DNA of 64,000 bases from an uncultured Bacteroidota bacterium (GCA_903861145.1 CAIOTH010000046.1:658-64657); one strand, 5' to 3'; shown: positions 49,128 to 64,000, numbered from the stretch's first letter. Notes: generated by a model not told the origin, from the sequence alone. A program made the numbers and translations.

Positions 49128-50525
49128 ATGATTACCAGCGATACTATTGTTGCGCTTGCTACGGCACCCGGTGTGGGGGCTATTGGCGTTATCCGCTTAT
49201 CGGGCCCACAGGCAATTGAAATAGTTGAAAAGGTTTTTAAAGGGAAAAACCTTACGCAACAAAAATCGCATACCATTCATTACGGCCATATTATTGATGA
49301 TGAAAAGATATTGGATGAGGTAATGGTAAGCCTGTTCCGTGCGCCCAAAAGTTTTACTACCGAAGATGTGGTTGAAATATCTTGCCATGGCTCTCCGTTT
49401 GTGGCCGAGCAAATTATCAGGTTGTTGATTCAAAAAGGTGCCAGGTCAGCTAAGCCCGGTGAGTTTACTTTGCGCGCTTTTATGCATGGCCGTATCGACC
49501 TTTCGCAGGCCGAAGCTGTGGCTGATTTAATAGCTTCTTCATCCTCAGCATCTCAACAATTGGCCCTGCAACAAATGCGCGGTGGTTTCTCTAACCAAAT
49601 AAAAGACCTACGCACCCAGCTACTCAACTTTGCTTCGCTGATTGAATTGGAGCTTGATTTTTCGGAAGAGGATGTGGAGTTTGCAAACCGCGAACAGTTA
49701 ATTGCACTAATAGACAGGATACAGCACCTACTTAAACCTTTAGCTGAATCTTTTAAGCTGGGTAATGTTATTAAGAATGGCGTTAACACTGTAATTGCCG
49801 GCAAACCCAATGCGGGTAAATCAACCTTGCTGAATGCACTACTGAACGAAGAGCGTGCTATTGTTTCTGAAATTCCTGGCACCACGCGTGATACGATTGA
49901 AGAGGTGATGAACATTAACGGTATCCAGTTTCGGTTTATTGATACTGCGGGTATAAGGGTTACAACAGATGCAATAGAACAGCAAGGAGTTGAACGTACG
50001 ATGGAAAAGCTACGGCAAAGTGCAGTTTACATTTATTTGTTTGATGTAAACAAAACTACGCCGCAAGAACTGCTACAAGAGCTTAAAGAATTGGAGCTAC
50101 TAGGCTTTAGCGGCCTTATTGTGGGCAACAAAATAGATAAGGCCAACTGGAAAACCACGGCGCCGTTTTACAGCGCCATTGAATTTTCAAAAGGCAAGCA
50201 TCATTTTCCCGAAATCATGTTTGTTTCAGCCAACACACATTACAACCTGCCATTGTTTAAAGAGAAGCTTTATCAACTGGTAACCAGTTCGGCGAAAGTA
50301 GGTTCGCAGGATACGATTATAACTAACCTGAGGCATTATGAAGCTTTAGTTAAAGCCAGCGAGGCTTTAAGCCTCGTTAAAACCGGCATCGAAAATCAAA
50401 ATACCGGCGAGCTGGTAGCATTTGATATTAAACGGGCGCTTGAATACCTGGGTGAGATATCGGGCGAGGTTACTAATGATGAAATATTGGGAAACATATT
50501 TTCGAAGTTTTGTATCGGCAAATAA
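49128..50525 (+). CDS. mnmE: tRNA uridine-5-carboxymethylaminomethyl modification GTPase
   Basis: DTIVALATAPGVGAIGVIRLSG, G1 GKPNAGKSTLLNAL, DTAGIR, NKID and the invariant C-terminus FCIGK. Confidence 0.95.
   Translation: MITSDTIVALATAPGVGAIGVIRLSGPQAIEIVEKVFKGKNLTQQKSHTIHYGHIIDDEKILDEVMVSLFRAPKSFTTEDVVEISCHGSPFVAEQIIRLLIQKGARSAKPGEFTLRAFMHGRIDLSQAEAVADLIASSSSASQQLALQQMRGGFSNQIKDLRTQLLNFASLIELELDFSEEDVEFANREQLIALIDRIQHLLKPLAESFKLGNVIKNGVNTVIAGKPNAGKSTLLNALLNEERAIVSEIPGTTRDTIEEVMNINGIQFRFIDTAGIRVTTDAIEQQGVERTMEKLRQSAVYIYLFDVNKTTPQELLQELKELELLGFSGLIVGNKIDKANWKTTAPFYSAIEFSKGKHHFPEIMFVSANTHYNLPLFKEKLYQLVTSSAKVGSQDTIITNLRHYEALVKASEALSLVKTGIENQNTGELVAFDIKRALEYLGEISGEVTNDEILGNIFSKFCIGK
50508..50525 (+). 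repeat. attL core (last 5 codons plus stop of mnmE, preceded by Phe codon)
   Basis: TTT TGT ATC GGC AAA TAA. Partner at 59940-59957. Confidence 0.7.
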
Positions 50526-50692
50526 TTTCTTACATTTTCCGTAATTTTACGTCATTTTCCATCATTTAACACAAAAAACATTCATTTTTTGTTGTTTTTG
50601 GTCAATTTTTATTTTTAGATTTGTTACGATTTGTTGCTCGCGGCTGATGCAATGTTGCTCAAATGTGGTCAAATAAATTTTAACAATAATAA

Positions 50693-50719
50693 TGCACCAT
50701 TCTGCACCAATATGCACCA
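50693..50719 (+). promoter_or_regulatory. three exact TGCACCA heptamers at 10-bp spacing (candidate arm-type or operator sites)
   Basis: TGCACCA at 50693, 50703 and 50713, which is 21-47 nt upstream of the first element gene (ATG 50740). Confidence 0.5.
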
Positions 50720-50739
50720 ACTAACCACATCAAGCTACA

Positions 50740-51111
50740 ATGAGCAGTAATCTAAGCCTTCCCAAAACCTGTCAGCATTGTGGCAAAGCCTTTATTGCAC
50801 AGAAATTTTCAACTAAATATTGTGGGCATCCTTGCGCGGCTCGCGCTTATAAACTCCGAATGAGGCAGGATAAAATTAAGGATGCCGTAAAAATGCAACA
50901 TTATGTTTTGCAGGACAGCACATCCAACATAGGTGCTTCTTCAACGAGCGTGTATAACAAGGAGTTTTTGAGTTTAAAAGAGGTCGCCCTACTGTTGGGG
51001 GCAAGCCGTTGGACAATTCAGCGCTTAATAAAAGCTAAAAAACTGACTGTTGGAAAAGTCGGGAGAAGGACAATAATTAAACGTTCAGAGATTGATAACC
51101 TATTTAAATAA
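50740..51111 (+). CDS. zinc-ribbon plus excisionase-type helix-turn-helix DNA-binding protein
   Basis: N-terminal CQHCGKAF...YCGHPC (C-x2-C...C-x3-C). C-terminal LSLKEVALLLGASRWTIQRLIKAKKLTVGKVGRRTIIKRSEIDNLF fits the excisionase/MerR-like HTH_17 type. Immediately upstream of int. Confidence 0.65.
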   Translation: MSSNLSLPKTCQHCGKAFIAQKFSTKYCGHPCAARAYKLRMRQDKIKDAVKMQHYVLQDSTSNIGASSTSVYNKEFLSLKEVALLLGASRWTIQRLIKAKKLTVGKVGRRTIIKRSEIDNLFK

Positions 51112-51118
51112 ATATTAT

Positions 51119-52225
51119 ATGACAATCACATTAAGACAAAGAATTAGACCAAAAAGAATTAGTCTCTACCTTGAATACTACGAAAACGGCAAGCGCACTT
51201 ACGAAAACTTGCCTATTCATTTGATTGCAGGCGACAACTTAACAGCCGAGCAAAAGGAAAGAAATAAGCAGGAACTTGAAACGGCAGAATCTATTGCGAC
51301 AATCAGAAAAGGAGACATGCTTAAAGGCAGGTTCGGCATAAAGGATACCAAAAAGCTGAAAGGAAGTTTTATAAAGTATGCTGAAATGCTTGCTGAGAAA
51401 AGAAGAAGAAATAAGAATAACTACCAAAATTGGTTGAGCGCCCTGCGGCATCTCAAAGCATTTTGTAAGGAAATTACTTTCGCCGATATAAACAAAAAAT
51501 GGCTTGAAGACTTTCGCGCTTACTTGCAAGAGGAAGCAGTAAAGCCAAATGGCGAACCGTTAGCGCCAAATTCTCAATCGTCATATTTTAATAAGGTTCG
51601 GGCGGCTATTAAAGAAGCCTTTATGGATGAAATTCTGCTACACAACCCCGCCGAGAAGGTTGAACCTATTAAGGGAGAACAATCGGAGATGTGCTATCTT
51701 ACCGAAGAGGAGGCACAAAAGATGGCGGATGCAGAATGCGTCTCGCCTGTTTTAAAACGAGCATTTATGTTTGCTTGTGTAACAGGGTTAAGATATTGCG
51801 ATATTGAAAAGTTAACTTGGTCGGAATTGCATATACATGAAGAAGGCTGCAACATTCACTTCCGCCAAAAGAAAGTTCAAGAGCAGTTTCTGATTCATCC
51901 ATTTAAAATTGACTTCATACACCTCTTAGGTGAAAGGGGCAACCCTGACGACCGCGTCTTTCAAGGACTTTATTATGGACTTACAAGGAGTCCGAAATTT
52001 GATAATTGGGTCAAAAAATCGGGGATTAATAAATCGCCCACGTTCCATTCGTCAAGGCACACCTATACCTGTATCCTTCTTAACAAGGGAGTGGGTATTT
52101 ATGTGGTATCTAAAATGTTGGGACATAAAAATGTTGCCACAACGGAGCGAACTTATGCTCATATAATACCTAAGACGAAGCAAGACGCTGCCAATCAGAT
52201 TGACCTTAAATTTGGGACACGGTGA
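51119..52225 (+). CDS. int: tyrosine-type site-specific integrase
   Basis: N-terminal ITLRQRIRPKRISLYLEYYENGKRTYE (Bacteroidota integrase arm-binding type). Catalytic blocks GLRYCDIEKLTW (R), HSSRHTY (H-x-x-R) and LGHKNVATTERTYAHI (H...Y). Confidence 0.9.
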   Translation: MTITLRQRIRPKRISLYLEYYENGKRTYENLPIHLIAGDNLTAEQKERNKQELETAESIATIRKGDMLKGRFGIKDTKKLKGSFIKYAEMLAEKRRRNKNNYQNWLSALRHLKAFCKEITFADINKKWLEDFRAYLQEEAVKPNGEPLAPNSQSSYFNKVRAAIKEAFMDEILLHNPAEKVEPIKGEQSEMCYLTEEEAQKMADAECVSPVLKRAFMFACVTGLRYCDIEKLTWSELHIHEEGCNIHFRQKKVQEQFLIHPFKIDFIHLLGERGNPDDRVFQGLYYGLTRSPKFDNWVKKSGINKSPTFHSSRHTYTCILLNKGVGIYVVSKMLGHKNVATTERTYAHIIPKTKQDAANQIDLKFGTR

Positions 52226-53133
52226 TTAAGGATATGCGATTTTGGCAACGCCATTACGCACAACAATTTAAATATATAGTCGAAATTTACTTCAAAGATG
52301 AGGACGAGCTCTTCCTTCGGTTTATCAAAGGGCTTGCTGATGTCCATGCCCAATACGCTTTTGCTAAGAGCCAAGTAATATCGGATGAAGGCGAAGTCAA
52401 GATTGACAATAATTTTCTGTATGAAGTATCTGCAATTGTAGGGGAATATATTTTGGAGTTTCTCCAACAAAATCCATCTTTTGATACTCCACTGAACGGG
52501 AGAAAACTTGCAAAATTTCAGAGAGCAATAATCCATGAATATTATGCGGATGAGAAGATGCCCGCAACAAAAAGGTTGCAAATACTTGAAAGTTCCCAAA
52601 CGGCACTGTCTGATTATTGGTCAATAGAAATGGGTAGCATCCCATTTGGTATTGCGGAGCAATTTGATTTTATGCAGGCTAAGATAGATTCGCTCGGACG
52701 GAATGCGGAACAGATTGCTTCCGAACCTGATTTAATGTTTTGGGAATTCGGTTTTCAAAATCTTAGGCTGCTTGAGCAGAAATTGAAAGGTCTTCCCGCC
52801 CCTTTATTGGAAATAAATTCCAATTTGATTCCATTGTTCTCCAATCATATTGTGAATGATGCTCAAAAGGCAAATTGGAAAGGAGACCAAGTAGCCTTGA
52901 TATATATGTTATATAAAATTGCAGGAACAAAAATGAAAATCAACAATCAAAGCATCTATGAATTTGTTAGTGGACGCTTTACAGTCAAAGGCAAAACCGT
53001 TACCGCTAAAAATTTATCCTCCTCCTTAAACATGTTAATTAATGATTTCCTTTTGAAGAAAAATCGAGCCGATATACTGCCTCCGTCAATTATAACGATT
53101 GACCAAATTTTAGCATATCTCGATATTAAATAA
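52222..53133 (+). CDS. hypothetical protein of the element
   Basis: 303-aa ORF overlapping the int stop (GTG at 52222; alternative ATG at 52234). No firm motif. Confidence 0.5.
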   Translation: MIKDMRFWQRHYAQQFKYIVEIYFKDEDELFLRFIKGLADVHAQYAFAKSQVISDEGEVKIDNNFLYEVSAIVGEYILEFLQQNPSFDTPLNGRKLAKFQRAIIHEYYADEKMPATKRLQILESSQTALSDYWSIEMGSIPFGIAEQFDFMQAKIDSLGRNAEQIASEPDLMFWEFGFQNLRLLEQKLKGLPAPLLEINSNLIPLFSNHIVNDAQKANWKGDQVALIYMLYKIAGTKMKINNQSIYEFVSGRFTVKGKTVTAKNLSSSLNMLINDFLLKKNRADILPPSIITIDQILAYLDIK

Positions 53134-53281
53134 CAGGCGCGTCTCTTTCCAATATAATTCCAATATAATTCCAACTGCAACACCCCCTTCCGATTGGGCG
53201 TGATTTATTTTCGTGGCAGGTTTTAGCACATTCAGTAATTGCTTCAACCATATTACAAATACGCTTAAATATATCACCGCC

Positions 53282-53656
53282 ATGAAGAAGGAAAAGGCTT
53301 TTAACCACGAAGACAAAGAGGAAAGCTTGATTGCAGTGTTGAACCGAGTTGAACAAAAAATAGACCTGCAAAATATCCTCTTAAAAAATGTCTATGACAT
53401 AAAGCGAGCCGCCTCTTATTGCAATATAGCTGTAACCACATTGCATAAATTAAAGGACAATAAAAAAATTAAATATTCGCAACCAAACGGCAAAGGCACT
53501 ATGTGTTTTTTCAAGAGAGAGGATTTAGATAGTTACATGTTATCTAACCCAATTGAAACTTCCGAGGACATTACGAACAAAATAGCTGAAAGTGAGAGAC
53601 GCGCGGCGGATTATGTGAACCTGAACCCCGCTAAATATATGCGCGGGAAGAAATAG
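53282..53656 (+). CDS. excisionase-type helix-turn-helix DNA-binding protein
   Basis: VYDIKRAASYCNIAVTTLHKLKDNKKIKYSQPNGKGTMCFFKREDLDSYM fits the HTH_17/excisionase pattern. Start set at MKKEKAF. Confidence 0.6.
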   Translation: MKKEKAFNHEDKEESLIAVLNRVEQKIDLQNILLKNVYDIKRAASYCNIAVTTLHKLKDNKKIKYSQPNGKGTMCFFKREDLDSYMLSNPIETSEDITNKIAESERRAADYVNLNPAKYMRGKK

Positions 53657-53762
53657 GAGAGGTATTCGTAGAAGAAACAAAATGTGAAGTTGGGAAATTC
53701 GAAGCTTTTTCCTTGAATCTCAGTGTGCCCGCTCGAACCCCGAAATTCAAAAATAAATTATC

Positions 53763-54539
53763 ATGGAAATTCCTGTTCAATTAGAAACACAATACGAGAA
53801 CGGTGTCAGATACTTTCATTACGAACGGATTTCAATTGCTATATACGATGGTGGTTTGGTCGTTGTGATAATTGATGACTTTAAGCATCCTGATGGAAGG
53901 CGATTCGAAAAACTTATTGTGCTCTTCCAAGAAAGCCCGCCGCAAAAGGGACGACCCAAAAAGAAACTGATAACAAAATGCCCTGTAAACGAAGGTCGCG
54001 ACTATTTAATCTGCACTGTTCCGAACATTACTGCAAAGGAAATATCATCAGGTAACACTTGTGTCCCTGCCATTGAAGTGCTTGCAGCTTACGAAGAGTT
54101 TATCAACCATGCCTCTCGGTTCGATTGGGATTTCTTTATAGTTTTTACGTCGCATAAGTATCTCTCAGTTAGCAGATGCATATGGATTATGGAAAGGATG
54201 CGGAAGTCGCTGAGGGCAGCAGGCTCGCAAAATATGTATTGGGTAGCCGAACGATTCAACGGTAAAGAAGGTAGACATATTCACCTGTTGCTTGACATGA
54301 AAGGTCAAGGCGCAGATAAGTATGTCTTCGATTTGTGGCAAGGCTTGTCGGGCGCGAAAAAGGATAAAACGTCTGCTGTGGTTTATATACAGCCATACAA
54401 AAAAGAATTAAATGCAGGACACTACTTGACGAAGGAAATATTTACTATGAGCGATTATTATGATTTTGATTTTGCCGAAGTGGGGGAACAAATTAATGGA
54501 GGTCAAGAAAACCTGTGTTCGGCTTTGCCGAAGGAATAG
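53763..54539 (+). CDS. candidate HUH-superfamily rolling-circle replication initiator (Rep)
   Basis: Three blocks in Rep order and spacing: FFIVFT (aa 124-129), RHIHLLLD (aa 171-178, His-hydrophobic-His) and GHYLTKE (Y221-x-x-K224). Confidence 0.5.
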   Translation: MEIPVQLETQYENGVRYFHYERISIAIYDGGLVVVIIDDFKHPDGRRFEKLIVLFQESPPQKGRPKKKLITKCPVNEGRDYLICTVPNITAKEISSGNTCVPAIEVLAAYEEFINHASRFDWDFFIVFTSHKYLSVSRCIWIMERMRKSLRAAGSQNMYWVAERFNGKEGRHIHLLLDMKGQGADKYVFDLWQGLSGAKKDKTSAVVYIQPYKKELNAGHYLTKEIFTMSDYYDFDFAEVGEQINGGQENLCSALPKE

Positions 54540-54880
54540 AAGCAGAAGTAGCGCAATTGTAAATTAATTAGGAGGGAAATTCTTTCAATAAAAAAGGTCG
54601 AATAAAATGGATGAATTAGAGTCCAACGGAAACATGGTCGCCATCATGGCGCAATTAGCCTTAGTAGCAATGGCAATAGGCATAGCATCGCTGTATATCG
54701 AAAGCGGAAATGCGAAGCGGAAGTGATGACGCGCGGGCGGAATTACCGAAGGATTGCCGAAGAAATGGAATTAGCATCTGAATTTAATATCCTTCGGCAA
54801 ATTAATTAGCAGGAAATAAAGAGCCGAGTAAAAACCTTGTTTGTGTAAAGAGCGTTTGCCGAACAAATACCGAAGGAATC
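54525..54880. repeat. iteron/hairpin region downstream of the Rep-like gene (candidate ori or res site)
   Basis: TTGCCGAAGGAAT at 54525, CCGAAGGAT+TTGCCGAAG at 54746-54762, inverted ATCCTTCGGCAA at 54789-54800, TTGCCGAAC at 54856 and ACCGAAGGAATC at 54869. Confidence 0.55.
54607..54726 (+). CDS. possible 39-aa hydrophobic peptide
   Basis: Own translation: MDELESNGNMVAIMAQLALVAMAIGIASLYIESGNAKRK. One TM segment. Coding status unproven. Confidence 0.25.
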   Translation: MDELESNGNMVAIMAQLALVAMAIGIASLYIESGNAKRK

Positions 54881-54883
54881 AAA

Positions 54884-54894
54884 GGGGGGGGGGG
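54884..54894. repeat. G11 homopolymer tract
   Basis: Eleven consecutive G residues, 45 nt upstream of the 54939 ORF and 261 nt upstream of the serine recombinase gene. Confidence 0.9.
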
Positions 54895-54938
54895 TGGAAT
54901 TCAAAATCAATTATGCAAAAAATTAAAACCTAATTAAA

Positions 54939-55136
54939 ATGGACGACAAAGAAAATGAAGGCTTAAAAGATGTTCTCCTTGAGTTCTACGACTCGCACAA
55001 GAGGCTAATACTTACCGTTGGGACAATTATAGGAACGATTGGTCTTGTGTATGTTTCGGGCAAGATTTTCAAAGTCGTTGCAAAAACGGCGAATGATTTT
55101 AAAGACATGCGCTCAGCGTTGAAGCGTAAAGTATAA
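54939..55136 (+). CDS. small single-pass membrane protein
   Basis: 65 aa with an acidic N-terminus, one TM segment (LILTVGTIIGTIGLVYV) and a basic tail. Lies 18 nt upstream of the recombinase gene. Confidence 0.4.
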   Translation: MDDKENEGLKDVLLEFYDSHKRLILTVGTIIGTIGLVYVSGKIFKVVAKTANDFKDMRSALKRKV

Positions 55137-55154
55137 ACGGAAAAATTTTTACCG

Positions 55155-55805
55155 ATGAAAAACTCAGTGATATATATACGGACTTCCACAGATAAGCAGA
55201 CTCCCGAATTGCAATTGCGGGACATATCTTCTCTTGAGCCGCCCAACGATGCAATCATTTTAGAAGAAACGTTGTCCGCTTGGAAGGAAAACGTTGTCCG
55301 ACCTGCAATTATTAATCTGAGGGATATGATTAAAGTGGGCAACGTCAGCACACTCTACGTTTGGCATTTGGACAGACTTTATCGCAATAGGAAACGGCTA
55401 ATTGAGTTTTTATCACTTTGTAAAGTTCAGGGTGTAAAAATTTGCAGTTTCAATCAAAAGTGGCTCGATGCCATACAAAGAATGCCTGAGCCGTTCAATG
55501 AAGCCATGTTTGATTTTATGCTGCAAATTTTGGGATGGATGGCAGAAGATGAGTCGAAGACCAAATCGGAAAGAGTGAAGATGTCTGTGCGAGAAACTGA
55601 AAAAGGAACATTCTCATACAAGGGAAACAAATGGGGACGGAAGGCGTTACCGAAGCAAACAGAAAACCGAGTGCTTGAACTTTATGCTGAGGGTAAATCT
55701 ATTCGTGCAATAGCCGCGCAAGTGCAAATTTACGATGGCAACAAAAATGGTCGCCCCATATCTAAAAGCGCTGTCCACAAAATCATAGCAGCAAATCGGG
55801 CTTAA
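55155..55805 (+). CDS. small serine recombinase (resolvase/invertase family)
   Basis: VIYIRTSTDKQ (catalytic Ser11), LYVWHLDRLYRN (the DRLxR block) and a C-terminal HTH (LELYAEGKSIRAIAAQV). Confidence 0.9.
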   Translation: MKNSVIYIRTSTDKQTPELQLRDISSLEPPNDAIILEETLSAWKENVVRPAIINLRDMIKVGNVSTLYVWHLDRLYRNRKRLIEFLSLCKVQGVKICSFNQKWLDAIQRMPEPFNEAMFDFMLQILGWMAEDESKTKSERVKMSVRETEKGTFSYKGNKWGRKALPKQTENRVLELYAEGKSIRAIAAQVQIYDGNKNGRPISKSAVHKIIAANRA

Positions 55806-55904
55806 AAAGGTAGTAAATTATCAAGTCCAGGAATTAGTCAATTAAAGGACAGGAGAAATAGGTCAGTCGAAATATTTTTAAATTCATCACTTAAAACACA
55901 TCAA

Positions 55905-56111
55905 ATGAAAACTAAAGAGGAAAATCTGAAATGCACCAAATGCGGGTATGAAGACAATATAAGCTCATGGCACGAGAGGCAGCAATATGATAGCGACGGG
56001 CATTACCCGCCAAGTATTCAAGGCGTGAGTCCTGAATACACTCTTTGCCCTGAATGCGGCAGCTTCCTACATGTAGATTATGACTTAGACGAAGTGGGTG
56101 AAGGCGAATAA
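55905..56111 (+). CDS. small zinc-ribbon protein
   Basis: 68 aa with CTKCG ... CPECG pairs and an acidic tail. Confidence 0.45.
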   Translation: MKTKEENLKCTKCGYEDNISSWHERQQYDSDGHYPPSIQGVSPEYTLCPECGSFLHVDYDLDEVGEGE

Positions 56112-56155
56112 TCCCGATAAGGTTTAGCACAGCCTATGAAAGTTACGCATAGGCA

Positions 56156-56362
56156 TTATTTTCCGAATAATCTCTTTAGCATACCGAGCAGACTAAAAGA
56201 AGTTCGGTCATACACTCGGTTGTATGCGGCTTTATTCGGATTCGTTAACCAACCCCATCCCCTCGGCGCTCGAATGCCCAACGCGTTTTTTATAATTCGC
56301 TTTGGCGAGGTGCGGGCGCCAATCATTCGGCTAAGTGAGGGCTGACGGAAACCAAATTTCAT
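56156..56362 (-). CDS. small basic protein
   Basis: 68 aa. The block SRMIGARTSPKRIIKNALGIRAPRGWGWLTNPNKAAYNRVYDRTSF resembles, from memory only, a small basic protein family I associate with phages and mobile elements. Preferred over the overlapping plus-strand ORF. Confidence 0.45.
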   Translation of the reverse strand: MKFGFRQPSLSRMIGARTSPKRIIKNALGIRAPRGWGWLTNPNKAAYNRVYDRTSFSLLGMLKRLFGK

Positions 56363-56505
56363 ATTAACGTAGTTTTTTAATTGCCAATTAATTCGACCTG
56401 AATTTTTTCAAAAATTAAATAAAATTAAATCGGAATTTATTTCTTGCTATTCTGATTATTGATTTCCTATTTCGTCCTTTTAATCTGACATAAATATAAA
56501 AGGAC

Positions 56506-56943
56506 ATGCGGAAGAACAGTATAATTTTGAAGCCCACGTATAAGTATAAGCTCGCGGATAGAATCGAAATATCCATGATTGAGTTCGAAGCAGAGCAATT
56601 GCGAATTGATTTTATAGCTAAGCCCGATTTGCTGTATGACTACGCATGGTGGATTAATATTGAATACCGAACGTTCATTCAAGTAACGGGCACTAAAATA
56701 AGATTGCCAATGTGCGAAGTCGCAAATATTCCTCTCGCGCCGAATAAATACTACTTCGAGACCAAAGATTCCGAGCTTAAATATTCCCTATATTTTATCC
56801 TTCCGCCATCAAGCGCAAAGCGAATTGACATTATCGAAAAAGAATGGGGAGGTAATAACTCTTTTAATTTCTACGGCGTTGCATTGTCGGACAGTCTTCC
56901 GCATCCTTTATTCGAAGGCGGCGTTAAGCTTGAGCTAAACTAA
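56506..56943 (+). CDS. hypothetical protein of the element
   Basis: 145-aa ORF with no recognisable motif. Confidence 0.45.
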   Translation: MRKNSIILKPTYKYKLADRIEISMIEFEAEQLRIDFIAKPDLLYDYAWWINIEYRTFIQVTGTKIRLPMCEVANIPLAPNKYYFETKDSELKYSLYFILPPSSAKRIDIIEKEWGGNNSFNFYGVALSDSLPHPLFEGGVKLELN

Positions 56944-56986
56944 ACATCCATTGCGGATTTGTAAATATTCTAAATAAAAGGAGTGT

Positions 56987-57364
56987 TTAAATATCTCCAA
57001 ATTTTTCTTGATAGCGAAGCAAAGCTTCTTCCTTGTCCTTGAGCAGTTTTTCAAGAAGAAAAACCTTGTCTTCGTATAGCTTCTTCATTTCCTTCGACAT
57101 GTCGGTTATAATTATGCCATTATTGTTGCCTTTAATATTAGTTTGACTATTGAAGAGCTTCTGTTGGTCAAAGGCTATCAACTCTTCAACGCTAACACCT
57201 AAAACCTTTGCAATCTCTTCAAGCTTTGCGAACGTTACATCAGTTTCTCCGCCCTCAATTTTACTGTAACCCGCTTGAGTTATATGCAGCTTCTTCGCCA
57301 TGAACTCTTGAGTATAGTTTCTAAGCTCACGGATGTTCTTGATTTTGGTTCCTAACTTATTCAT
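56987..57364 (-). CDS. XRE (Cro/CI) family transcriptional regulator with C-terminal coiled coil
   Basis: IKNIRELRNYTQEFMAKKLHITQAGYSKIEGGETDVTFAKLEEIAKVLGVSVEELI is a canonical HTH_3 domain. Confidence 0.85.
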   Translation of the reverse strand: MNKLGTKIKNIRELRNYTQEFMAKKLHITQAGYSKIEGGETDVTFAKLEEIAKVLGVSVEELIAFDQQKLFNSQTNIKGNNNGIIITDMSKEMKKLYEDKVFLLEKLLKDKEEALLRYQEKFGDI

Positions 57365-57487
57365 GGGACATGTATTGGTTTATAAAATATAACGCATGCG
57401 ACTAAACAACAACTAAGTAAAGGATTTTTCAAACACTAAAGATGTTGCTTTGCGAAAATATTTTTCAAACCCCATAAAAAATTTAGT

Positions 57488-58015
57488 ATGAAAAAAATGT
57501 CCTCCTTGTTTTTGCTGTTAATGAGCGTATTGCTAATGACAGTTTCTTCGTGTTCTAAAAACGATAGCTGTCCAAACGGATTTACAGGCTCTAATTGCTC
57601 CCAACAAAAAAACCCTGTTCAAATTCAGGTTACTAAAGTAACTGTTACAAATTTTCCCTCAACAAGACTTGATGGCACTGATTGGAATTTGACTGAGTCT
57701 GCGGGACATGCCGACATCTATCCTACAATTGCGGATTCAAGTGGTAACGTGGTTTTTACCTTCCGCTCGGTATATCTATCGAATGCAAGCAACGCAAATA
57801 ATAATATTTTTACTCTAAGCACTCCTATCATTCTTTCAAATCCGTTGAGTTCTTACACGTTTACTTTATTTAATTGGAATAGCGTAGCCGCCGATGACAA
57901 CATGGGTTCAATTACAAAAATAATTTACAACAGTTCCAATAATTTCCCTACAACCATAAACCTTGATAATGGCGCAGGGCTTACCTTTCAGTTAACTGTT
58001 CAATACGTTTATTAA
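57488..58015 (+). CDS. lipoprotein of unknown function
   Basis: Lipobox VSSC followed by CPNGFTGSNC (a short EGF-like loop). The rest is beta-rich. Confidence 0.55.
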   Translation: MKKMSSLFLLLMSVLLMTVSSCSKNDSCPNGFTGSNCSQQKNPVQIQVTKVTVTNFPSTRLDGTDWNLTESAGHADIYPTIADSSGNVVFTFRSVYLSNASNANNNIFTLSTPIILSNPLSSYTFTLFNWNSVAADDNMGSITKIIYNSSNNFPTTINLDNGAGLTFQLTVQYVY

Positions 58016-58091
58016 AGAAATATTCTCTAAGCATAATGGGCAACGGTAAGAAAGCAAAATCGCTTTCAATAGCCGTTGCCCATTTTTATTT

Positions 58092-58487
58092 CTATAAGCA
58101 ACGCCTCAATTCGGCTGCTTTGATAAATTCAATCAGGCTGTTATCTACATCAAATGGCAACTCCCCTCGGTCATAGTAAGTTTTTATGATGGTGTATTTG
58201 CATGGTTTATCATAGTCCTCCATATGCTCCGATAATGGTCTCGGCTTTCTTTGTCTGCTTTCCGCATAGACAAGTATTTTACTCATTCGCACATCTTCGG
58301 ATAAAAAAGCTACAACAGCTTCCTCCCATTTGCTCAGAAGCAATTGGCGTTCTTTTATTGGGTTTGACTCTACGAATTGTTTGTATTCAAGTATCTTTTT
58401 TAGAGACCTTTCTTGCTTAGGAAAAAGATGGTAAAGGTCAAAAAAATCCAAGCCTAAGTTGTATAGGAATTTCTTAATTATCATCAT
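58092..58487 (-). CDS. hypothetical protein, divergent partner of the HEPN-motif gene
   Basis: 131-aa ORF with no recognisable motif. Shares a 154-bp intergenic region with the 58642 gene. Confidence 0.45.
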   Translation of the reverse strand: MMIIKKFLYNLGLDFFDLYHLFPKQERSLKKILEYKQFVESNPIKERQLLLSKWEEAVVAFLSEDVRMSKILVYAESRQRKPRPLSEHMEDYDKPCKYTIIKTYYDRGELPFDVDNSLIEFIKAAELRRCL

Positions 58488-58641
58488 GCGTCTAATTTGT
58501 TATCCAATATATTCCATAAAACCGAAGAAGCCCAATTCAGCTAAAAAAATTATGATAAATTATTTTTTACTCGAATTAGCTATTAAATTTCGCACGAAAT
58601 TCAAATCGCAAAAAATTATCTAATTACCAAAAAAAACCATA

Positions 58642-59571
58642 ATGTATATAGACTTTCATAAGTATAACTACGACCTTGTATCAGCCACCGATAAGCAGGG
58701 CTATATTGACCGTGACAAAGAATCTTACAAGTCCGTGCTTCGAAAATGGCTTGAAGATAATTTAAATGACATCGTTAATAGGAAATGGGAAGTGGAGGAG
58801 ATATATTTCCTTAAAGACGTTAGCGATTTTATTAAACTATTGCGCGAAGCTGAAACGATTTATGAATTAGGCTTTTATACGAGTTGCATTGCACTTATTG
58901 GAGTATCAGCGGAAGATTTTAGCAAATTTTTATCCATTAAAGTTGGGCAGGCGGCGTATGCTGAGGAGAAGCAGTGGCGAAGATTGAAATTGCTATTGGA
59001 TAATGGATATATCACACAAGCGATATTTGACCTTTTAGATAATATAAGGGAGGTTAGAAACGATTGTTTACACTATGACCAAGATTTTAAGCAAAAGACC
59101 GATGCCGAATTGAAACAGGACAGTTTAACTGTGCTCAACAACCTGAAAAATGTCCTGAAAATAACAATCGGGCTGACGGGCTCTTTTGACAAAGAAGGTC
59201 TTTTAGAAATTATTGAGGAAATCAGTTCGACAACTACGGATGCGCGAAATTTCGATGAGGTTCAGGTTAAAATTAAAAATGCTGTATCCCATCTCTTAAA
59301 GTTTCCTATTGCATTTAACCCGCAGGAAAAATTTCAGGTTCGGTTTAAGTCCTTTGAAGTGGTAGGGATTGACGATGATGAAATTACTTTGAAAGAACTG
59401 CCCTCTCAACTTCGCGTTTTTGTGGAACTTCCGCAAGCAGCTAAAGACTTAATTGACGCTAAAGGCATAGCGGCTGGCGATGTTGTATTCGCTTCTATTT
59501 ATTCAATTGTAGATGCTAATGGTATGACCGCTGAATGGAATTTGCTTGACATTCAGAAAACCGCTGCGTAA
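58642..59571 (+). CDS. HEPN-motif protein (DUF4145/Abi-like helical domain plus unknown C-terminal domain)
   Basis: Helical block LLREAETIYELGFYTSCIALIGVSAEDFSKFL, then DNIREVRNDCLHYD with R139-N-D-C-L-H144 (the R-x4-H HEPN motif; nt 59056-59073). C-terminal about 130 aa unassigned. Confidence 0.5.
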   Translation: MYIDFHKYNYDLVSATDKQGYIDRDKESYKSVLRKWLEDNLNDIVNRKWEVEEIYFLKDVSDFIKLLREAETIYELGFYTSCIALIGVSAEDFSKFLSIKVGQAAYAEEKQWRRLKLLLDNGYITQAIFDLLDNIREVRNDCLHYDQDFKQKTDAELKQDSLTVLNNLKNVLKITIGLTGSFDKEGLLEIIEEISSTTTDARNFDEVQVKIKNAVSHLLKFPIAFNPQEKFQVRFKSFEVVGIDDDEITLKELPSQLRVFVELPQAAKDLIDAKGIAAGDVVFASIYSIVDANGMTAEWNLLDIQKTAA

Positions 59572-59939
59572 AATCAATGGAAGTTCGGGTTTAGTCAGTT
59601 TATTTATTAAGCCTCAAAATCTAATTTAACACCGTTAAGCTCCCTTGCATCATGTTAGTGTGTAATTGAGCTAAAAATGGCTTCAAAATCGTTTTGGCAA
59701 TTGATTTGAGCTTAGGTTGGGGTTTACATTCCAACAAATCTTCTAAACATAGCATTTGGTTGAGGATAAAGTTATGGTGCGCCTGCACAATGAATCAGCG
59801 CAATGCTTGGCTTTTACTATGCTCCGCAAATTTGCTGAACATCACTTTTTATTGGTGTGGGATTACTTTTTATCGCGGATTTTGTTGCTCATTTGTTGCC
59901 CGAAACGCTGAAACCCTTGATAATACAGGGGTCTTCACT

Positions 59940-59957
59940 TTCTGTATCGGGAAATAG
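59940..59957 (+). repeat. attR core (orphan copy of the mnmE terminal 18-mer)
   Basis: TTC TGT ATC GGG AAA TAG encodes F-C-I-G-K-stop. It differs from 50508-50525 only at three codon third positions. Confidence 0.7.
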
Positions 59958-60192
59958 CGCCTATTAATCAACCAATCCACTCACGTCATATTGAATGGCT
60001 TACTGCAGCATAATGATGAAGAGCCTCGCTTTCTATTCTGCCAACTATAAATGGTTCAATTGTAATTCATGGCAAATAGCTGCTAGTGCATGGCTTCGAA
60101 AATTGATGCCATTTATCATGTTCTGTGCTGACCATATTCATGACCAGGGATTTACGGAGCATTTATTTTTGCTTCATTAAAATCAAAATAAT

Positions 60193-60609
60193 ATGAGTAA
60201 AAAAATATCGGTTTCAGGCGTGATGACTCCGCATGTTATTGTAGCCAACGTAAACACCAGGTTTGCCGAGATAGAGGAGTTTTTTGATAATTATAATATC
60301 CAACACTTGCCTGTGGCCGAGGGGGATCGTTTAATTGGCATTGTAAGTATAAACGACATGATGAAGTATATATTTAAAAAGCTGAAAAGCGGAACGGCAT
60401 TTAATCAGGCTTCGCTTGCCGCAACTTTTGATTTGAAAGAGATAATGACCACAAACCCTGTTTGCGTAAATCCGGATGATGATTTTTCGAAAGTGGTTGA
60501 TATTTTAGCACAGGGCAAATTTCAGTCGGTGCCTGTTGTTAAGGATGGCCTAATTGTGGGTATCATTACCAATAAAGATGTGGTAAGGGCTTATCAACAG
60601 CTCATGTAA
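60193..60609 (+). CDS. CBS-pair domain protein
   Basis: Two CBS repeats (MTPHVIV...HLPVAEGDRLIGIVSINDM and MTTNPVCV...SVPVVKDGLIVGIITNKDV). Confidence 0.85.
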   Translation: MSKKISVSGVMTPHVIVANVNTRFAEIEEFFDNYNIQHLPVAEGDRLIGIVSINDMMKYIFKKLKSGTAFNQASLAATFDLKEIMTTNPVCVNPDDDFSKVVDILAQGKFQSVPVVKDGLIVGIITNKDVVRAYQQLM

Positions 60610-61209: not shown

Positions 61210-61462
61210 GCCCTTTATTTCCGGGTAATGATAAATTTCATAACTCTTTTTTACAGGTATATCTATGTTCGCTTTTTGGTTATCGCCTAAGGTATCGGGG
61301 CAATTAACGCATTTCAATGCAGTGCCACGGTAACATAAGGCGGTAAGCATTAGCTAAATAGCAAATAGACCTGGTTATTGAATCACTTTATAATTATTTT
61401 AATATTCAGGAGAATAACATAACTTCACACAGGTGCAAAATTATAAAGATAAATATTGGAAT

Positions 61463-64000
61463 ATGAAAAAGGGACTAATAGGTTTAATTCTTGCATTTTG
61501 CGGATTCAATACCTGTATGGCACAGGCGCCACAGGACATGAACTACCAGGCAATTGTGAGAAATGCTTCGGGACAGGTTTTACCCGGCGGCCAAACGGTT
61601 TCATTGCGCTTTCAAATTCATGACGGCTCACCCACGGGTACAGTTGTTTTTCAGGAAGTCGCTTCTGCGGTAACTAATCAGTTCGGACTTGTGACCCACA
61701 TAATAGGCAGTGGCTCAAACCTGGCCACTGTAAACTGGGGTACTGGCCCTAAATATCTTCAGATTGAATTAGACCCTGCCGGAGGAGTTAGTTACGCAGA
61801 TATGGGTACTTCGCAATTGATAAGCGTTCCTTATGCGTTGTTTGCTGCCAATAGTGAGCCCGGACCCTCAGGTCCAACAGGTAGCAATGGAAGCAATGGA
61901 TTAAACGGGGCAACCGGGATAGCCGGAGCGGCCGGTCTTAACGGGGCTACAGGAGCAACGGGGGCTACAGGAAGTAACGGCGTAATTGGCCCAATAGGGG
62001 CAACCGGGGCAATTGGTGCTACAGGTAATGCCGGCGCGGTGGGAGCTACAGGACCAGCAGGAAATAATGGATTAAACGGAGCCACCGGAGCTCCGGGTTA
62101 AACGGCAATCGCGGTTTTACGGGTGCCACAGGTGCAACCGGAGGTAATGGAATAGATGGTGAAACGGGTGTTACAGGTGCAACCGGGAGTGCCGGAAACA
62201 GGGGCGCCACAGGCGCATCGGGCATAGATGGAGATATTGGCCCAACCGGAAGGGCCGGAACAACCGGCGCAACAGGAAATGTTGGGGCCATCGGAGCTAC
62301 GGGTTTTACCGGTAATGTTGGAGCAACGGGCGCAACCGGCATTACGGGTGCCACAGGATTTACAGGTGATGTTGGGGTTACGGGGGCGATTGGTGCCACC
62401 GGAGCTACGGGCTTTACCGGTAATGTTGGGGCAACGGGCGCAACCGGCATTACAGGTGCCACAGGATTTACAGGTGATGTTGGGGCTACGGGGGCTATTG
62501 GTGCCACCGGAGCTACGGGCTTTACGGGTAATGTTGGAGCTACCGGCCTTTTATCGGCGGGAACAGCAATAGGGAATACAACGTATTGGGATGGTACTCA
62601 GTGGGTGTTGAGTAGTAATAATATATACAACGACAATGCCAATGTTGGTATTGGTACAGCATCGCCGGGAGAGAAACTTACGGTGGTTGATCCGGCTAAC
62701 TTAAATCAATACAATGGCACGTTGGGTATATATGCTAATAATCTTACTGAAGGTATAGGTATAGGCTACATGGGAATTCAGGCAGTGGGTTCTAATGCCA
62801 GCCAGGACCTTTCATTTAACGCAAAGGGCACGGGTAATATCACAATGCAGGTTAGCAGAACTACAGGAAATGTGGGTATTGCAACGGGAAACCCGCTTAC
62901 ACCACTTGATGAAAATGGAGTAATTAATTCGGCAACCGGCTATGAGATTGCCAATGGCGCAGCGGCTGGAAACTACCTAAGGGGTAATGGAACTAACTTC
63001 GTTTCATCGGCAATTCAGGCGGCCGACCTACCCAGTGGTAACGGGAATTATATTCAAAACAGAACCTCTATTCAGCCCACCTCAAATTTTAATATCAGCG
63101 GAATAGGGTATGCACAAGGTAGCTTGCAGGCACCTGTATTTTATGATCTTAGCAATACAGCATACTATGTGCAGCCTTCATCAACAAGTATATTAAACAA
63201 CGTGCGTTTTAATAGTGCCGATTGTTTGAATGGCAACTGCCCCACTAACGGGGCCATACGTTACACACCCAACTTTTATCTTAATGCTGTTAACGGAAGC
63301 GCGGTTTTGATTAACTGGGATAATGGAACAACTGCGGGTGCCAATACCAAGCAACTACGTGTTGGAACCGGGCAAGCCGCTGACGCTTTTTATGTTACTT
63401 CGGCGGGTAATACGTTTGCCAGTTATTTTAACTCAACTGATAACACAGTTAGCAGTGGTGTAACCGGTGTAATGGTTAAACAAGGCGATAATTATATAAG
63501 GACCGCTAATGCCTCGGCTTTGGCCAGTTTTGTTGTTCCAGGTGCTTCGTCTAATGTTAGTAAAGTAGGATATAGCGCTGGCCCTACGGTGTATCAGTAT
63601 ATTCCTTATAATGCTTCGGCCCAAACGCCTATAAGTGGTTCAACAAATACTGTGGCGATGGCCGCAAGTGGCAATATATTGCTTGTTGCTAATGTTACCA
63701 TTACTGCTGGTGATGGAACTAACGATATTATTTATTCCGGTCCGGAAGACTTTGGAAATGGTAACACTGCACTTGCCGGAGATGCCTCGTATAGAATTGA
63801 AGTACAAAGGTCTCCAAATAATTCAAGCTGGACTACTGTTATGACAAGTTCAGCACACTGCGGAATGCAGGTACCGGATGCTAATAATTTTTATGCAACA
63901 ACTGGCTCGGGTTCGCAAAATGATGCAGGCGTTTTTGGTGACAGGTATAGTTTTCCGGGAAATGTTTCGATTAATTATATTGACCCTGTAACCACTGGAA
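61463..64000 (+). pseudogene. collagen-like (G-X-Y) tail-fibre-like surface protein, split by a 1-nt frameshift at about 62095-62101; 3' end beyond the window
   Basis: Signal peptide MKKGLIGLILAFCGFNTCMAQA. G-X-Y triplets run from about 61860 to the TAA at 62099-62101. They continue without interruption in the -1 frame from 62101 to about 62545. A non-collagen domain ([16 protein letters not shown]...) is then open to position 64000. Confidence 0.7.
62296..62547 (+). repeat. 108-bp tandem repeat (about 2.3 copies) inside the collagen-like region
   Basis: Units start at 62296, 62404 and 62512 (GCTACGGG(T/C)TTTAC(C/G)GGTAATGTTGG...). Each encodes 12 G-X-Y triplets. Confidence 0.85.

Follow-up and report, generated by a model that had tools for sequence, protein, structure and literature searches.

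How did the mnmE gene of a freshwater Bacteroidota bacterium come to be parted from the gene that follows it in very close relatives, and what is the DNA that now lies between the two? The locus is contained in a stretch of 64,000 nucleotides from an uncultured member of this phylum (GCA_903861145.1, CAIOTH010000046.1:658-64657), which we call the window and number from its first letter. The target, mnmE, is an essential tRNA-modification gene that encodes a tRNA modification GTPase (49128..50525, + strand; Pfam TrmE_N, MnmE_helical, and MMR_HSR1). The initial annotation had proposed that an integrative element is inserted in the last 18 bp of mnmE and that two 18-mers are its attL and attR, the same target as that of SGI1-family islands in a different phylum. 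Our analysis bears this out. Insertion at the 18-bp core by site-specific recombination is virtually certain, and we consider it probable that the region is a site-specific integrative element of 9,432 bp core to core (50526-59939) for which the host population is currently polymorphic.

The evidence carrying this answer comes from contigs in both states, which were found by exact look-up of the CBS and MnmE proteins in public assemblies. Two contigs of the same freshwater metagenome series as the window (L084 and L092), with an MnmE protein 100% identical to that of the window, contain mnmE, then one 18-mer, TTTTGTATCGGGAAATAG, then a stretch 100% identical to positions 59958-60192 (235 nt), and then the CBS gene. 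This is exactly the empty site that had been predicted, and the boundary of the polymorphism falls exactly at the 18-mers. Two more contigs have the same empty-site arrangement as far as gene layout goes. In the empty sites, the host spacer (59958-60192) and the CBS-domain gene (60193-60609; Pfam match at 1.2e-26), together occupying 59958..60609 on the + strand, directly follow mnmE.

In the window, the attL core, TTTTGTATCGGCAAATAA, forms the end of mnmE (50508..50525, +), and the attR core, TTCTGTATCGGGAAATAG, lies at 59940..59957 (+). When the sequences and positions were re-read, the cores proved identical at 15 of 18 positions, the mismatches at positions 3, 12, and 18 being two third-codon positions and the stop codon, and both cores translate F-C-I-G-K-stop. 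The translation 5' of the right 18-mer, ...NAETLDNTGVFT, is unrelated to that of MnmE at the same place, ...TNDEILGNIFSK, in keeping with the duplication of the core alone. A search of the 64 kb with up to three mismatches found these two sites only. In the shuffle control, 0.28 matches were expected, and 2 of 100 shuffles gave at least two at the same threshold; the repeat taken alone is only modest evidence of insertion. An ancestral chromosome with a second 18-mer arisen by chance could draw on this marginal significance, yet it is refuted by the empty sites bounded exactly at the 18-mers, and it also conflicts with a composition foreign to the host and with the dozens of homologous integrase genes at the same core in other taxa, so that we assign it practically no probability. 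The GC content of the element is 38.6% versus 42.1% in the remaining window, below that of all 83 host windows of equal size (minimum 40.6%), and its tetranucleotide distance is 0.25 versus 0.08-0.11 for host windows. The suspicion that the element is richer in AT than its flanks was thereby confirmed, the effect being moderate, and the composition supports a foreign origin.

The three cores also suggest where the recombination took place. Compared with attB, TTTTGTATCGGGAAATAG, the attL core differs at positions 12 and 18 only and would have an attB-derived left and an attP-derived right portion, while the attR core differs at position 3 only and would be composed in the opposite way. Because the element supplied the TTC on the left and the GGC AAA TAA on the right of these chimeric cores, we infer attP to be TTCTGTATCGGCAAATAA; both strand exchanges would then fall within TGTATCGG, core positions 4-11, between the differences at positions 3 and 12. 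The junction reads ...TCGAAGTTTTGTATCGGGAAATAGCGCCTATT... at attB and is predicted to read ...CAGGGGTCTTCACTTTCTGTATCGGCAAATAATTTCTTACATTTTCC... at attP. A TTTC/GAAA dyad borders the TGTATCGG stretch in attR, and the crossover stretch with its bordering dyad is as expected for a tyrosine recombinase with an overlap region of 6-8 bp. The other integrase-bearing elements for which both repeats are available obey the same rule, with all inter-repeat mismatches at positions ≤3 or ≥12 (L040; L064, at 2, 3, 12, and 18; L179/L181, at 12 and 17; L184/L186, at 3, 17, and 18). The final 7 bases of mnmE now come from the element, whose core restores the reading frame by synonymous codons, GGC AAA TAA replacing GGG AAA TAG, so that the MnmE protein is unaltered by the insertion.

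Which enzyme performed the insertion? Domain searches agreed with the genes recognised earlier at the left end of the element, namely a Zn-ribbon/excisionase-like gene, a tyrosine integrase, and a second excisionase-type helix-turn-helix (HTH) gene. The integrase has 368 residues (51119..52225, +; the open reading frame (ORF) could begin at 51092) and contains Arm-DNA-bind_5, Phage_int_SAM_5, and Phage_integrase domains (PF00589, 5.9e-19). Its residues R225, K252, H310xxR313, H336, and Y346 are invariant in an alignment with 12 mnmE-linked homologues, by which it is predicted to be a catalytically complete tyrosine recombinase of the Bacteroidota type. That this integrase was responsible for the insertion is very likely. 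It is preceded by a protein of 123 residues with a Zn-ribbon (CxxC...CxxxC) and an HTH_17 domain (50740..51111, +; Pfam HTH_17 2.6e-10, TIGR01764 'excise' 2.4e-9, phrog_66), a candidate excisionase (recombination directionality factor) or regulator. Its gene keeps its place beside the integrase in 10 of the genome loci and in numerous loci from metagenomes. The second HTH_17 protein (53213..53656, +; 124 residues with a start at 53282 according to gene callers; HTH_17 6.2e-6, phrog_25262 2.2e-11) has homologues at the same position in at least nine related elements and is likewise a candidate excisionase or regulator.

Candidate arm-type integrase sites were noticed near attL (TTTGTTGTT, ATTTGTTAC, TTTGTTGCTC, and AATGTTGCTC; 50586..50662, +) and near attR (TTTGTTGCTC and TTTGTTGCCC; 59878..59901, +). 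Within the 64 kb, the decamer TTTGTTGCTC occurs in exact form only at 50630, 105 bp inward of attL, and at 59881, 59 bp inward of attR; degenerate copies adjoin both. Its presence at both ends, together with the Arm-DNA-bind_5 domain of the integrase, is the reason for regarding these sequences as putative arm sites. Between the integrase and the second HTH_17 gene lies orf303 (also called as 299 codons; 52234..53133, +), which has no match in Pfam, PHROGs, NCBIfam, or PADLOC and whose sole match among 5.8 billion proteins is itself. Related elements have DUF6617 or orphan genes of about 270-366 codons at this position, the counterpart in L049 being a DUF6617 gene. A relationship of orf303 to DUF6617 was considered and dropped, there being no significant similarity among orf303 and its positional counterparts.

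If the element excises, how might it persist as a circle? The gene orf258 (53763..54539, +) encodes 258 residues with a C-terminal HUH rolling-circle Rep domain (residues ~110-237), assigned by remote homology and fold. An exhaustive HMMER search gave 124 remote homologues, mostly proteins of about 140 residues aligning to residues 110-237; a word-indexed homologue search returned the query itself only. The alignment contains the motifs FxTFTT, HxHxL, and YxxK(Y)xxK, with E163, H172, and Y221 invariant among 53 homologues, 40 of which match PF23343 (REP_ORF2-G2P), the window protein itself being below Pfam detection. Its own motifs I, II (HUH), and III read FFIVFTS, RHIHLLL, and HYLTKE in that order. 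An HUH motif ahead of the tyrosine motif is the order of Rep proteins and not that of relaxases, and in orf258 the HUH motif precedes the tyrosine motif. The profile matches the SIRV1 ORF119 Rep (E 1.2e-4). An alignment-based AlphaFold2 model has a predicted local distance difference test (pLDDT) score above 90 in the C-terminal domain and matches, weakly, SIRV1 Rep, adeno-associated virus Rep, and RAYT in the PDB, as well as microvirus VP4 and ORF2/G2P initiators in BFVD (28 matches at E ≤1e-3). With the lone sequence, the PDB search gave noise and AlphaFold2 gave no usable model (pLDDT 42), and tblastn of the Rep against plasmids gave no match. The remote homologues, the motifs, the PF23343 matches of the relatives, and the fold matches support the earlier call of an HUH Rep-like gene, and on balance we favour rolling-circle replication by orf258. 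A stand-alone homologue of the Rep domain (146 residues) was also noticed in a 796-kb contig (L176:8001-10072), beside an HTH_17 gene and a 436-residue tyrosine integrase of the SAM_5 type, with about 10 small orphan ORFs ahead of it in the same orientation; the association of Rep, HTH, and integrase thus recurs in another kind of integrated element.

The initial annotation had also placed iterons next to this gene. Six copies of TRCCGAAGRA are indeed found at 54526..54877, all of them direct except for one inverted copy (all five exact copies of the window and one with a single mismatch), and they are strongly clustered; their assignment to the Rep is the part that became uncertain. The DNA of the repeat region folds no more stably than shuffled sequence (z = 0.66), and its centroid structure has a single local hairpin of 9-10 bp formed by one iteron and the inverted copy. 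We regard the cluster as a candidate origin or as a candidate array for the binding of a recombinase or regulator.

The element gains a comparison from L174, a sister element whose host has an MnmE 92% identical to that of the window and the same upstream synteny, and which has the same backbone at the same site. When L174:6882-15497 was compared with positions 50508-58606 of the window, identities were 78% for the Zn-ribbon/HTH_17 protein, 68% for the integrase, 57% for HTH147 and 63% for the serine recombinase, whereas the Rep is 30% identical with no DNA similarity, and the position of orf303 is taken by an unrelated gene of 274 codons; the whole Rep/orf303/HTH block has no DNA similarity between the two. 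By contrast, 55806-56111, which comprises the gene for a small Zn-ribbon protein (zn68) and its upstream spacer, has 94-99.5% nucleotide identity (99.5% for zn68, compared with 63-74% for the genes beside it) amid neighbours of 63-77%. A near-identical block of 0.3 kb in such surroundings indicates recent exchange between elements, and the mosaic of L174 and the window shows, as read from the two sequences, modular exchange between elements.

Two small genes downstream of the Rep are kept in L174 as well. One encodes a membrane-type protein of 39 residues (orf39; 54607..54726, +), called by the gene caller of the collection, which is about 80% identical in L174 (87.5% at the nucleotide level, with mostly conservative changes); the other, a small transmembrane protein of 65 residues (orf65; 54939..55136, +), has a 59% identical homologue at the same position. 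Both proteins combine an acidic N-terminus, one transmembrane segment, and a basic C-terminus. The major coat proteins of filamentous phages are similar in this respect; no Zot-type assembly ATPase was found in the element.

How the element moves between cells is the next question. The earlier remark that no relaxase, type IV secretion system (T4SS), capsid, or terminase gene is recognisable agrees with Pfam, PHROGs, and NCBIfam, in which no relaxase, T4SS, coupling protein, capsid, portal, tail, lysis, or terminase gene was found in the element; neither PHROGs nor Pfam revealed a Zot-type assembly ATPase or another morphogenesis gene, and the element had neither an Rfam match nor a predicted tRNA. 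An integrative conjugative element (ICE) is not indicated, since T4SS, coupling protein, and relaxase were not found and 9.4 kb is too small, and neither is a prophage, given that PHROG and Pfam gave no capsid, portal, terminase, tail, or lysis matches. Of the features of an integrative mobilisable element (IME, in the sense of Guedon et al. 2017, PMC5704250), an own integration/excision module is present as the integrase and the two HTH_17 proteins; as to a relaxase and oriT, there is no canonical relaxase match, and the HUH protein, closest to replication initiators, could act as a non-canonical relaxase. With no recognisable transfer or packaging genes, the element would have to hitch-hike or use transformation, and we lean towards hitch-hiking, the reading of the initial annotation, with which the data are consistent.

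Two specific forms of such dependence were weighed. The element might be a conjugatively mobilised IME in which the HUH protein is a non-canonical relaxase, the region of repeats and hairpin at 54.74-54.88 kb is oriT, and the T4SS comes from a co-resident conjugative element of Bacteroidota. Proteins of the type of rolling-circle initiators serve or have been proposed as relaxases in IMEs and ICEs (PMC5704250), among them MobT/Rep_trans or 'Viral_Rep' types in streptococcal IMEs, the integrase is of the type of Bacteroidota mobile elements, and among related mnmE-site elements some have RteC and two have a canonical Relaxase domain. Yet the window element has no match to a relaxase, coupling protein, or Mob family, its HUH domain is nearest to microvirus VP4 and inovirus G2P initiators rather than to known MOB families, and the 64-kb window, too small to judge, contains no conjugative element. 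This makes conjugative mobilisation an unlikely account.

Alternatively, the element could be a phage satellite or the remnant of a small replicon similar to those of single-stranded DNA phages, induced by a helper, replicated by rolling circle, and packaged by the helper, with orf39 and orf65 as coat-like or morphogenesis factors. Its small size and its order of integrase, regulators, rep/ori, and accessory genes, without structural genes, resemble phage-inducible chromosomal islands (PICIs), P4-like satellites, and RS1 of CTX-phi. In its fold, the Rep resembles the initiators of microviruses and inoviruses, and orf39 and orf65, with their pattern of charges, are conserved in L174. Moreover, the elements of more distant members of the integrase clade contain RecT, YqaJ, and helicase modules of the kind typically found in temperate phages, and integrases with 40% identity are found in unannotated human-faecal 'Bacteriophage sp.' contigs. 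The lack of any PHROG or Pfam match to a capsid, terminase small subunit, Zot-type ATPase, or morphogenesis gene speaks against this account, as do the absence of matches to the packaging-redirection genes of satellites (terS, cpm, sid/psu, and ppi; Pfam, PHROGs), the absence of tblastn matches for the Rep and orf303 in 50,697 phage records, the absence of the element from IMG/VR, and the lack of a known helper. We consider a satellite origin improbable to about the same degree as conjugative mobilisation.

For the site-specific integrative element, we propose the following mechanism. By homology, Int would carry out both integration and excision, aided by TTTGTTGC-type arm sites inside both ends and by one or both HTH_17 proteins as directionality factors. 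The HUH Rep protein would replicate the excised circle by rolling circle, with the TRCCGAAGRA repeat/hairpin region as the best candidate for the origin or, alternatively, as a binding array for a recombinase or regulator. The serine recombinase might resolve multimers or flip an adjacent segment of 0.8 kb. To reach other cells, the element would hitch-hike on a phage or on a conjugative element, or depend on transformation. The variable right half, with its XRE, lipoprotein, and HEPN/DUF4145 genes, might act in defence or exclusion, as a weak suggestion.

Several observations weigh against parts of this reading. The occupied contigs are all about 100% identical, which fits a single insertion followed by clonal spread, and the empty sites could be naive, never having been occupied. 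The attP junction had 0 matches in JGI metagenome contigs and the right end of the element had 0 matches in IMG/VR, results uninformative on excision because the source samples are ENA and Logan assemblies. At full length, orf258 is an orphan whose N-terminal 100 residues have no assignment. The TRCCGAAGRA repeats are retained in L174 despite its replaced Rep (30% identical, no DNA similarity), so that an array of Rep-specific iterons is doubtful and a res-like or regulator array is an alternative. The matches that suggest defence cargo are all below curated cut-offs, and about nine unassigned genes may leave room for an unrecognised mobilisation or packaging function.

The same near-identity of the occupied contigs and the missing attP junction would also suit an immobile relic, that is, one old insertion inherited vertically, with the polymorphism arising by lineage sorting or rare deletion; the identities to L174 (77% in the flanks, 75% in the integrase region, and 77% in the central block) are compatible with co-divergence with the host. 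What argues against a relic is that every recombination gene is intact, catalytic residues included, that the scar-free empty sites fit precise excision or a never-occupied site but not random deletion, that tandem arrays are common in relatives, and that the 0.3-kb block points to recent exchange. In addition, a different element stands at the site beside an identical MnmE: the contig 'ENliefLS' (sample ERZ1426601), with the flank variant of L092, has there a gene for a 72-residue HTH_17 protein followed by another gene cut at 289 residues. Among very close relatives, the site is thus empty (L084/L092), occupied by the window element, or otherwise occupied ('ENliefLS'). A relic therefore seems very unlikely to us, and we retain the site-specific integrative element in a polymorphic population.

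Is the window element an isolated case? In a set of 80 Bacteroidota genomes picked by the mnmE gene alone, a homologous integrase lies directly after mnmE in 12-17, often with a Zn-ribbon/HTH gene, the carriers including Mucilaginibacter, Saprospiraceae, Cyclobacteriaceae, and unclassified lineages. A second set comprised 80 metagenome loci picked by the integrase profile, 36-49% identical to the query. Here mnmE is directly upstream of the integrase in 51 of the 80, or 51 of the 65 informative loci; in the remaining 15 the upstream sequence is too short to tell, although 4 of them start with the MnmE C-terminus. In nine of the other 14 loci, the integrase is preceded at a distance of 170-590 bp by a bare FCIGK-stop core without mnmE coding sequence. 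Loci with such a bare F/x-C-I-G-K-stop core (L094, L095, L114, L135, L140, L144, L146, and L153; also L148 and L166) are probably, from their arrangement, second elements of tandem arrays at the mnmE site. The loci come from freshwater, marine (TARA), wastewater, soil, and human gut samples. We conclude that there is a broad clade of Bacteroidota integrases whose members sit almost always at this mnmE core. A faecal virome contig (MT836017; integrase 40% identical) was set aside, as it ends before the att site and has no mnmE core, and the downstream '18-mer' of L010, with two mismatches, was rejected as a chance match because housekeeping genes lie between it and mnmE.

The relatives differ widely in what they carry: DUF6617, RteC, BT4734-type primases with DUF3987/PriCT_2, Toprim primases, AAA_25/DnaB-like helicases, G2P-type Rep, YqaJ/RecT modules, restriction-modification (R-M), AbiE, and DpnII systems. 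In a census of 149 ORFs in the relatives, primase/helicase modules dominate and a canonical relaxase occurs in two. A cluster with MnmE proteins at least 90% identical and a different upstream synteny has different elements of 6.8-8.8 kb at the site (L179, L181, and L184-L188), with the order integrase, orphan of about 365 residues, RteC, HTH_17, 140-residue gene, and AAA_25/DnaB_C helicase, to which L179 and L181 add a DpnII-family restriction gene. RteC is a regulator family of CTnDOT-type conjugative transposons, and its presence in these elements hints at control by conjugative elements. The family thus appears as one with exchangeable replication modules (HUH Rep, primase-helicase, and DnaB-like) and frequent defence cargo, and at the family level the scar-free empty sites, tandem arrays, and differing occupants argue for an active system. 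Full-text literature searches outside subscription journals and island atlases returned no report of mnmE-targeting elements in Bacteroidota, only papers on Gammaproteobacteria, and a large, widespread group of mnmE-end islands across Bacteroidota is apparently undescribed.

Some islets bounded by the mnmE 18-mer repeat with zero or one mismatch have no integrase (L043:11357-21176, L047:1901-3245, and L075). That of L043, 9.8 kb long, contains AbiEi/AbiEii and a complete type I R-M system, and that of L047, 1.3 kb long, an HNH endonuclease; such islets may be cis-mobilisable remnants that need an integrase in trans. Many contigs of genomes (L002, L003, L032, L042, L058, L066, and L055) and of metagenomes (L129, L145, L147, and L154) end in mnmE, at the stop codon or a few bases past it, as one would expect of assemblies interrupted where some cells have an insertion and others do not.

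How does this family relate to the islands known from the same target? SGI1 integrates in the last 18 bp of thdF/trmE, which is mnmE (PMC2297512). The end of E. coli K-12 mnmE, TTCTGTATTGGTAAGTAA, encodes the same F-C-I-G-K-stop by the same number of codons and agrees with attB here at 14 of 18 positions, the differences being at third positions or in the stop codon, so that, as far as the site is concerned, the equivalence with the SGI1 target that had been named holds. The similarity goes further: as in SGI1 and MGIVchHai6, the gene is left intact, a tyrosine integrase is accompanied by an HTH_17-type protein, and a replication initiator and a resolvase-type serine recombinase are present; tandem arrays at the mnmE site occur both among these islands and among the Bacteroidota relatives. 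Xis of MGIVchHai6 is an HTH_17 protein, and type I R-M is present in the majority of the trmE-specific islands that resemble MGIVchHai6 (PMC7449626). Defence is often the cargo on both sides, with type I R-M in MGIVchHai6-like islands and R-M, AbiE, and DpnII in the Bacteroidota relatives.

The differences are equally clear. The SGI1 backbone comprises a Rep_3 RepA with oriV, mpsA/mpsB with oriT, traN/traG/traH, and sgaCD. The ORFs of the window element had no match to the SGI1/MGIVchHai6 backbone (mpsAB, traNGH, sgaCD, mobI, and Rep_3 RepA; Pfam, NCBIfam, and PHROG), and on backbone content the element falls outside the SGI1 family. It resides in the phylum Bacteroidota, has 9.4 kb in contrast to about 20-43 kb, and carries no resistance genes; its Rep is of the HUH rolling-circle type, unlike the theta-type Rep_3; and its integrase combines Arm-DNA-bind_5 with Phage_int_SAM_5, the closest relatives that were found for it sitting after mnmE genes of the Bacteroidota type. 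Int of MGIVchHai6 is 67% identical to Int_SGI1. The IncA/C helper plasmids of SGI1 are not expected in Bacteroidota. The mnmE specificity may have arisen independently of Int_SGI1, by convergence on the same site. The 3' end of mnmE in E. coli itself deserves mention here. When the K-12 mnmE-tnaC interval was compared with 5,425 complete E. coli genomes, less than 80% of it was matched in about 800, and in the six such cases that were listed all matches end at the mnmE stop codon. The two examined (L178 and L189; NZ_CP017251.1 and NZ_CP074749.1) have an islet of about 2.5 kb after mnmE with a type III effector of the ShET2/EspL2 family and no integrase. These islets indicate that the mnmE 3' end is also an insertion point in E. 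coli.

Other integrative elements offer partial parallels. NBU1/NBU2 and Tn4555 are likewise small Bacteroidota elements (~10-12 kb) with an integrase near one end and small HTH/Xis-like proteins; elements of the NBU type use the 3' end of a conserved gene, and some mnmE relatives share with them a BT4734-like primase and DUF3987. The targets of NBU1 and NBU2 are the 3' ends of tRNA-Leu and tRNA-Ser genes. The window element differs from NBU1/NBU2 and Tn4555 by a protein-coding target, by having no Mob relaxase or recognised oriT, and by an HUH Rep instead of a primase. The dusA-specific integrases form a clade tied to one conserved gene (PMC4482086). The dusA, yicC, guaA, and prfC integrase clades resemble the present one in having one short conserved coding target, in a gene for tRNA modification or another housekeeping function, with heterogeneous cargo (prophages, islands, and IMEs). 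The dusA clade targets a 5' end, whereas the window element targets and restores a 3' end, and the phylum and integrase clade differ; by analogy, a dedicated integrase clade of the dusA type may be regarded as the nearest conceptual parallel.

Integration by a tyrosine integrase at the 3' terminus of a conserved gene follows a principle already well established. What is new here is the phylum-wide class at the mnmE terminus, represented in the window by a minimal copy that has a Rep but no recognisable transfer machinery. The joint claim that the Bacteroidota family of minimal islands has an mnmE specificity independent of SGI1 and that the window element represents a new type of rolling-circle hitch-hiker or satellite is one we put forward tentatively, as it seems doubtful that all its parts hold together. 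On this view, every such island would combine a dedicated tyrosine integrase and one or two HTH_17 factors with an exchangeable replication module and defence cargo, known transfer genes being absent, and the window element would be the satellite of a phage or of a single-stranded DNA replicon. The terminal 18 bp of mnmE are an integration hot spot in two anciently diverged phyla, and this reuse permits tests of why a coding 3' end should be preferred as a 'safe harbour' and of whether the integrases cross-react on each other's cores. If the independent specificity is true, the F-C-I-G-K-stop 18-mer would be a cross-phylum 'universal safe harbour'. In practice, mnmE with an integrase within about 0.2-0.6 kb is a marker for mobile islands and defence systems in Bacteroidota genomes and metagenome-assembled genomes (MAGs), and insertions at this site offer an explanation of MAG contig breaks at the mnmE 3' end. 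The integrase and its 18-bp core, which is present in essentially every Bacteroidota genome examined, could become an integration tool in a phylum with limited genetic tools. The family also raises the question of how small islands spread that have a Rep but in which no relaxase or capsid gene was found.

The remaining genes of the element lie to the right of orf65. The small serine recombinase and the XRE regulator recognised earlier agree with Pfam matches. The recombinase is of the resolvase/invertase type (216 residues; 55155..55805, +; Pfam Resolvase 2.1e-22, HTH_7 1.2e-3), with a weak NCBIfam match to the Mpi master invertase. Perfect 16-nt inverted repeats, CAGCAAATCGGGCTTA, bound the segment 55789..56634 (arms 55789-55804 and 56619-56634). 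The repeat extends to about 22 nt with one indel, its left arm lying over the stop codon of the recombinase and its right arm in orf145. In silico, inversion of 55805-56618 leaves the recombinase intact and severs orf145 from its start, and the segment is a possible invertible ON/OFF switch, judging from its layout; no inverted variant of it was seen, and the 16-nt repeat is not kept in L174. Within the segment, the Zn-ribbon protein zn68 (68 residues; 55905..56111, +) has two CxxC pairs and weak Zn-ribbon Pfam matches, and a basic protein, also of 68 residues (56156..56362, - strand), is overlapped by a + ORF at 56136-56345, its differences from L174 being distributed 2/2/20 over the codon positions. 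The gene orf145 (56506..56943, +) has no family matches, and only remnants of it are found in L174.

Further to the right follow the XRE-family HTH regulator (125 residues; 56987..57364, -; HTH_3 6.7e-15, with matches to the PADLOC control-protein and capH-like HTH models), a predicted lipoprotein of 175 residues with a signal peptide ending ...VSSC and a weak N-terminal match to a fimbrial family (57488..58015, +), and orf131 (58092..58487, -), which has no family matches. The last gene encodes a DUF4145/HEPN-like protein of 309 residues (58642..59571, +) with the Rx4H motif RNDCLH. Its DUF4145 match (1.1e-4) reaches 22.7 bits against a cut-off of 23.1, and it has weak matches to AbiV, Csx1/Csm6-HEPN, and the abortive-infection family phrog_2158, on the strength of which it is a candidate for defence or abortive-infection cargo.

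Two features vary between contigs of the same population. A G11 tract at 54883-54893 (+), 45 bp 5' of orf65, is G9 in L090, a difference that, together with one single-nucleotide polymorphism at 54859, is the sole one between L090 and the window over 11.4 kb; the contigs L091 and L082 break on opposite sides of this tract. The change in length may reflect slipped-strand phase variation or an artefact of sequencing or assembly. In the host flank, a gene with collagen triple-helix repeats (61433-62101), 0.8 kb downstream of the CBS gene, forms a GC peak of 0.52-0.55 versus ~0.42, and the length of its protein differs between contigs of one population, 212 versus 222 residues.

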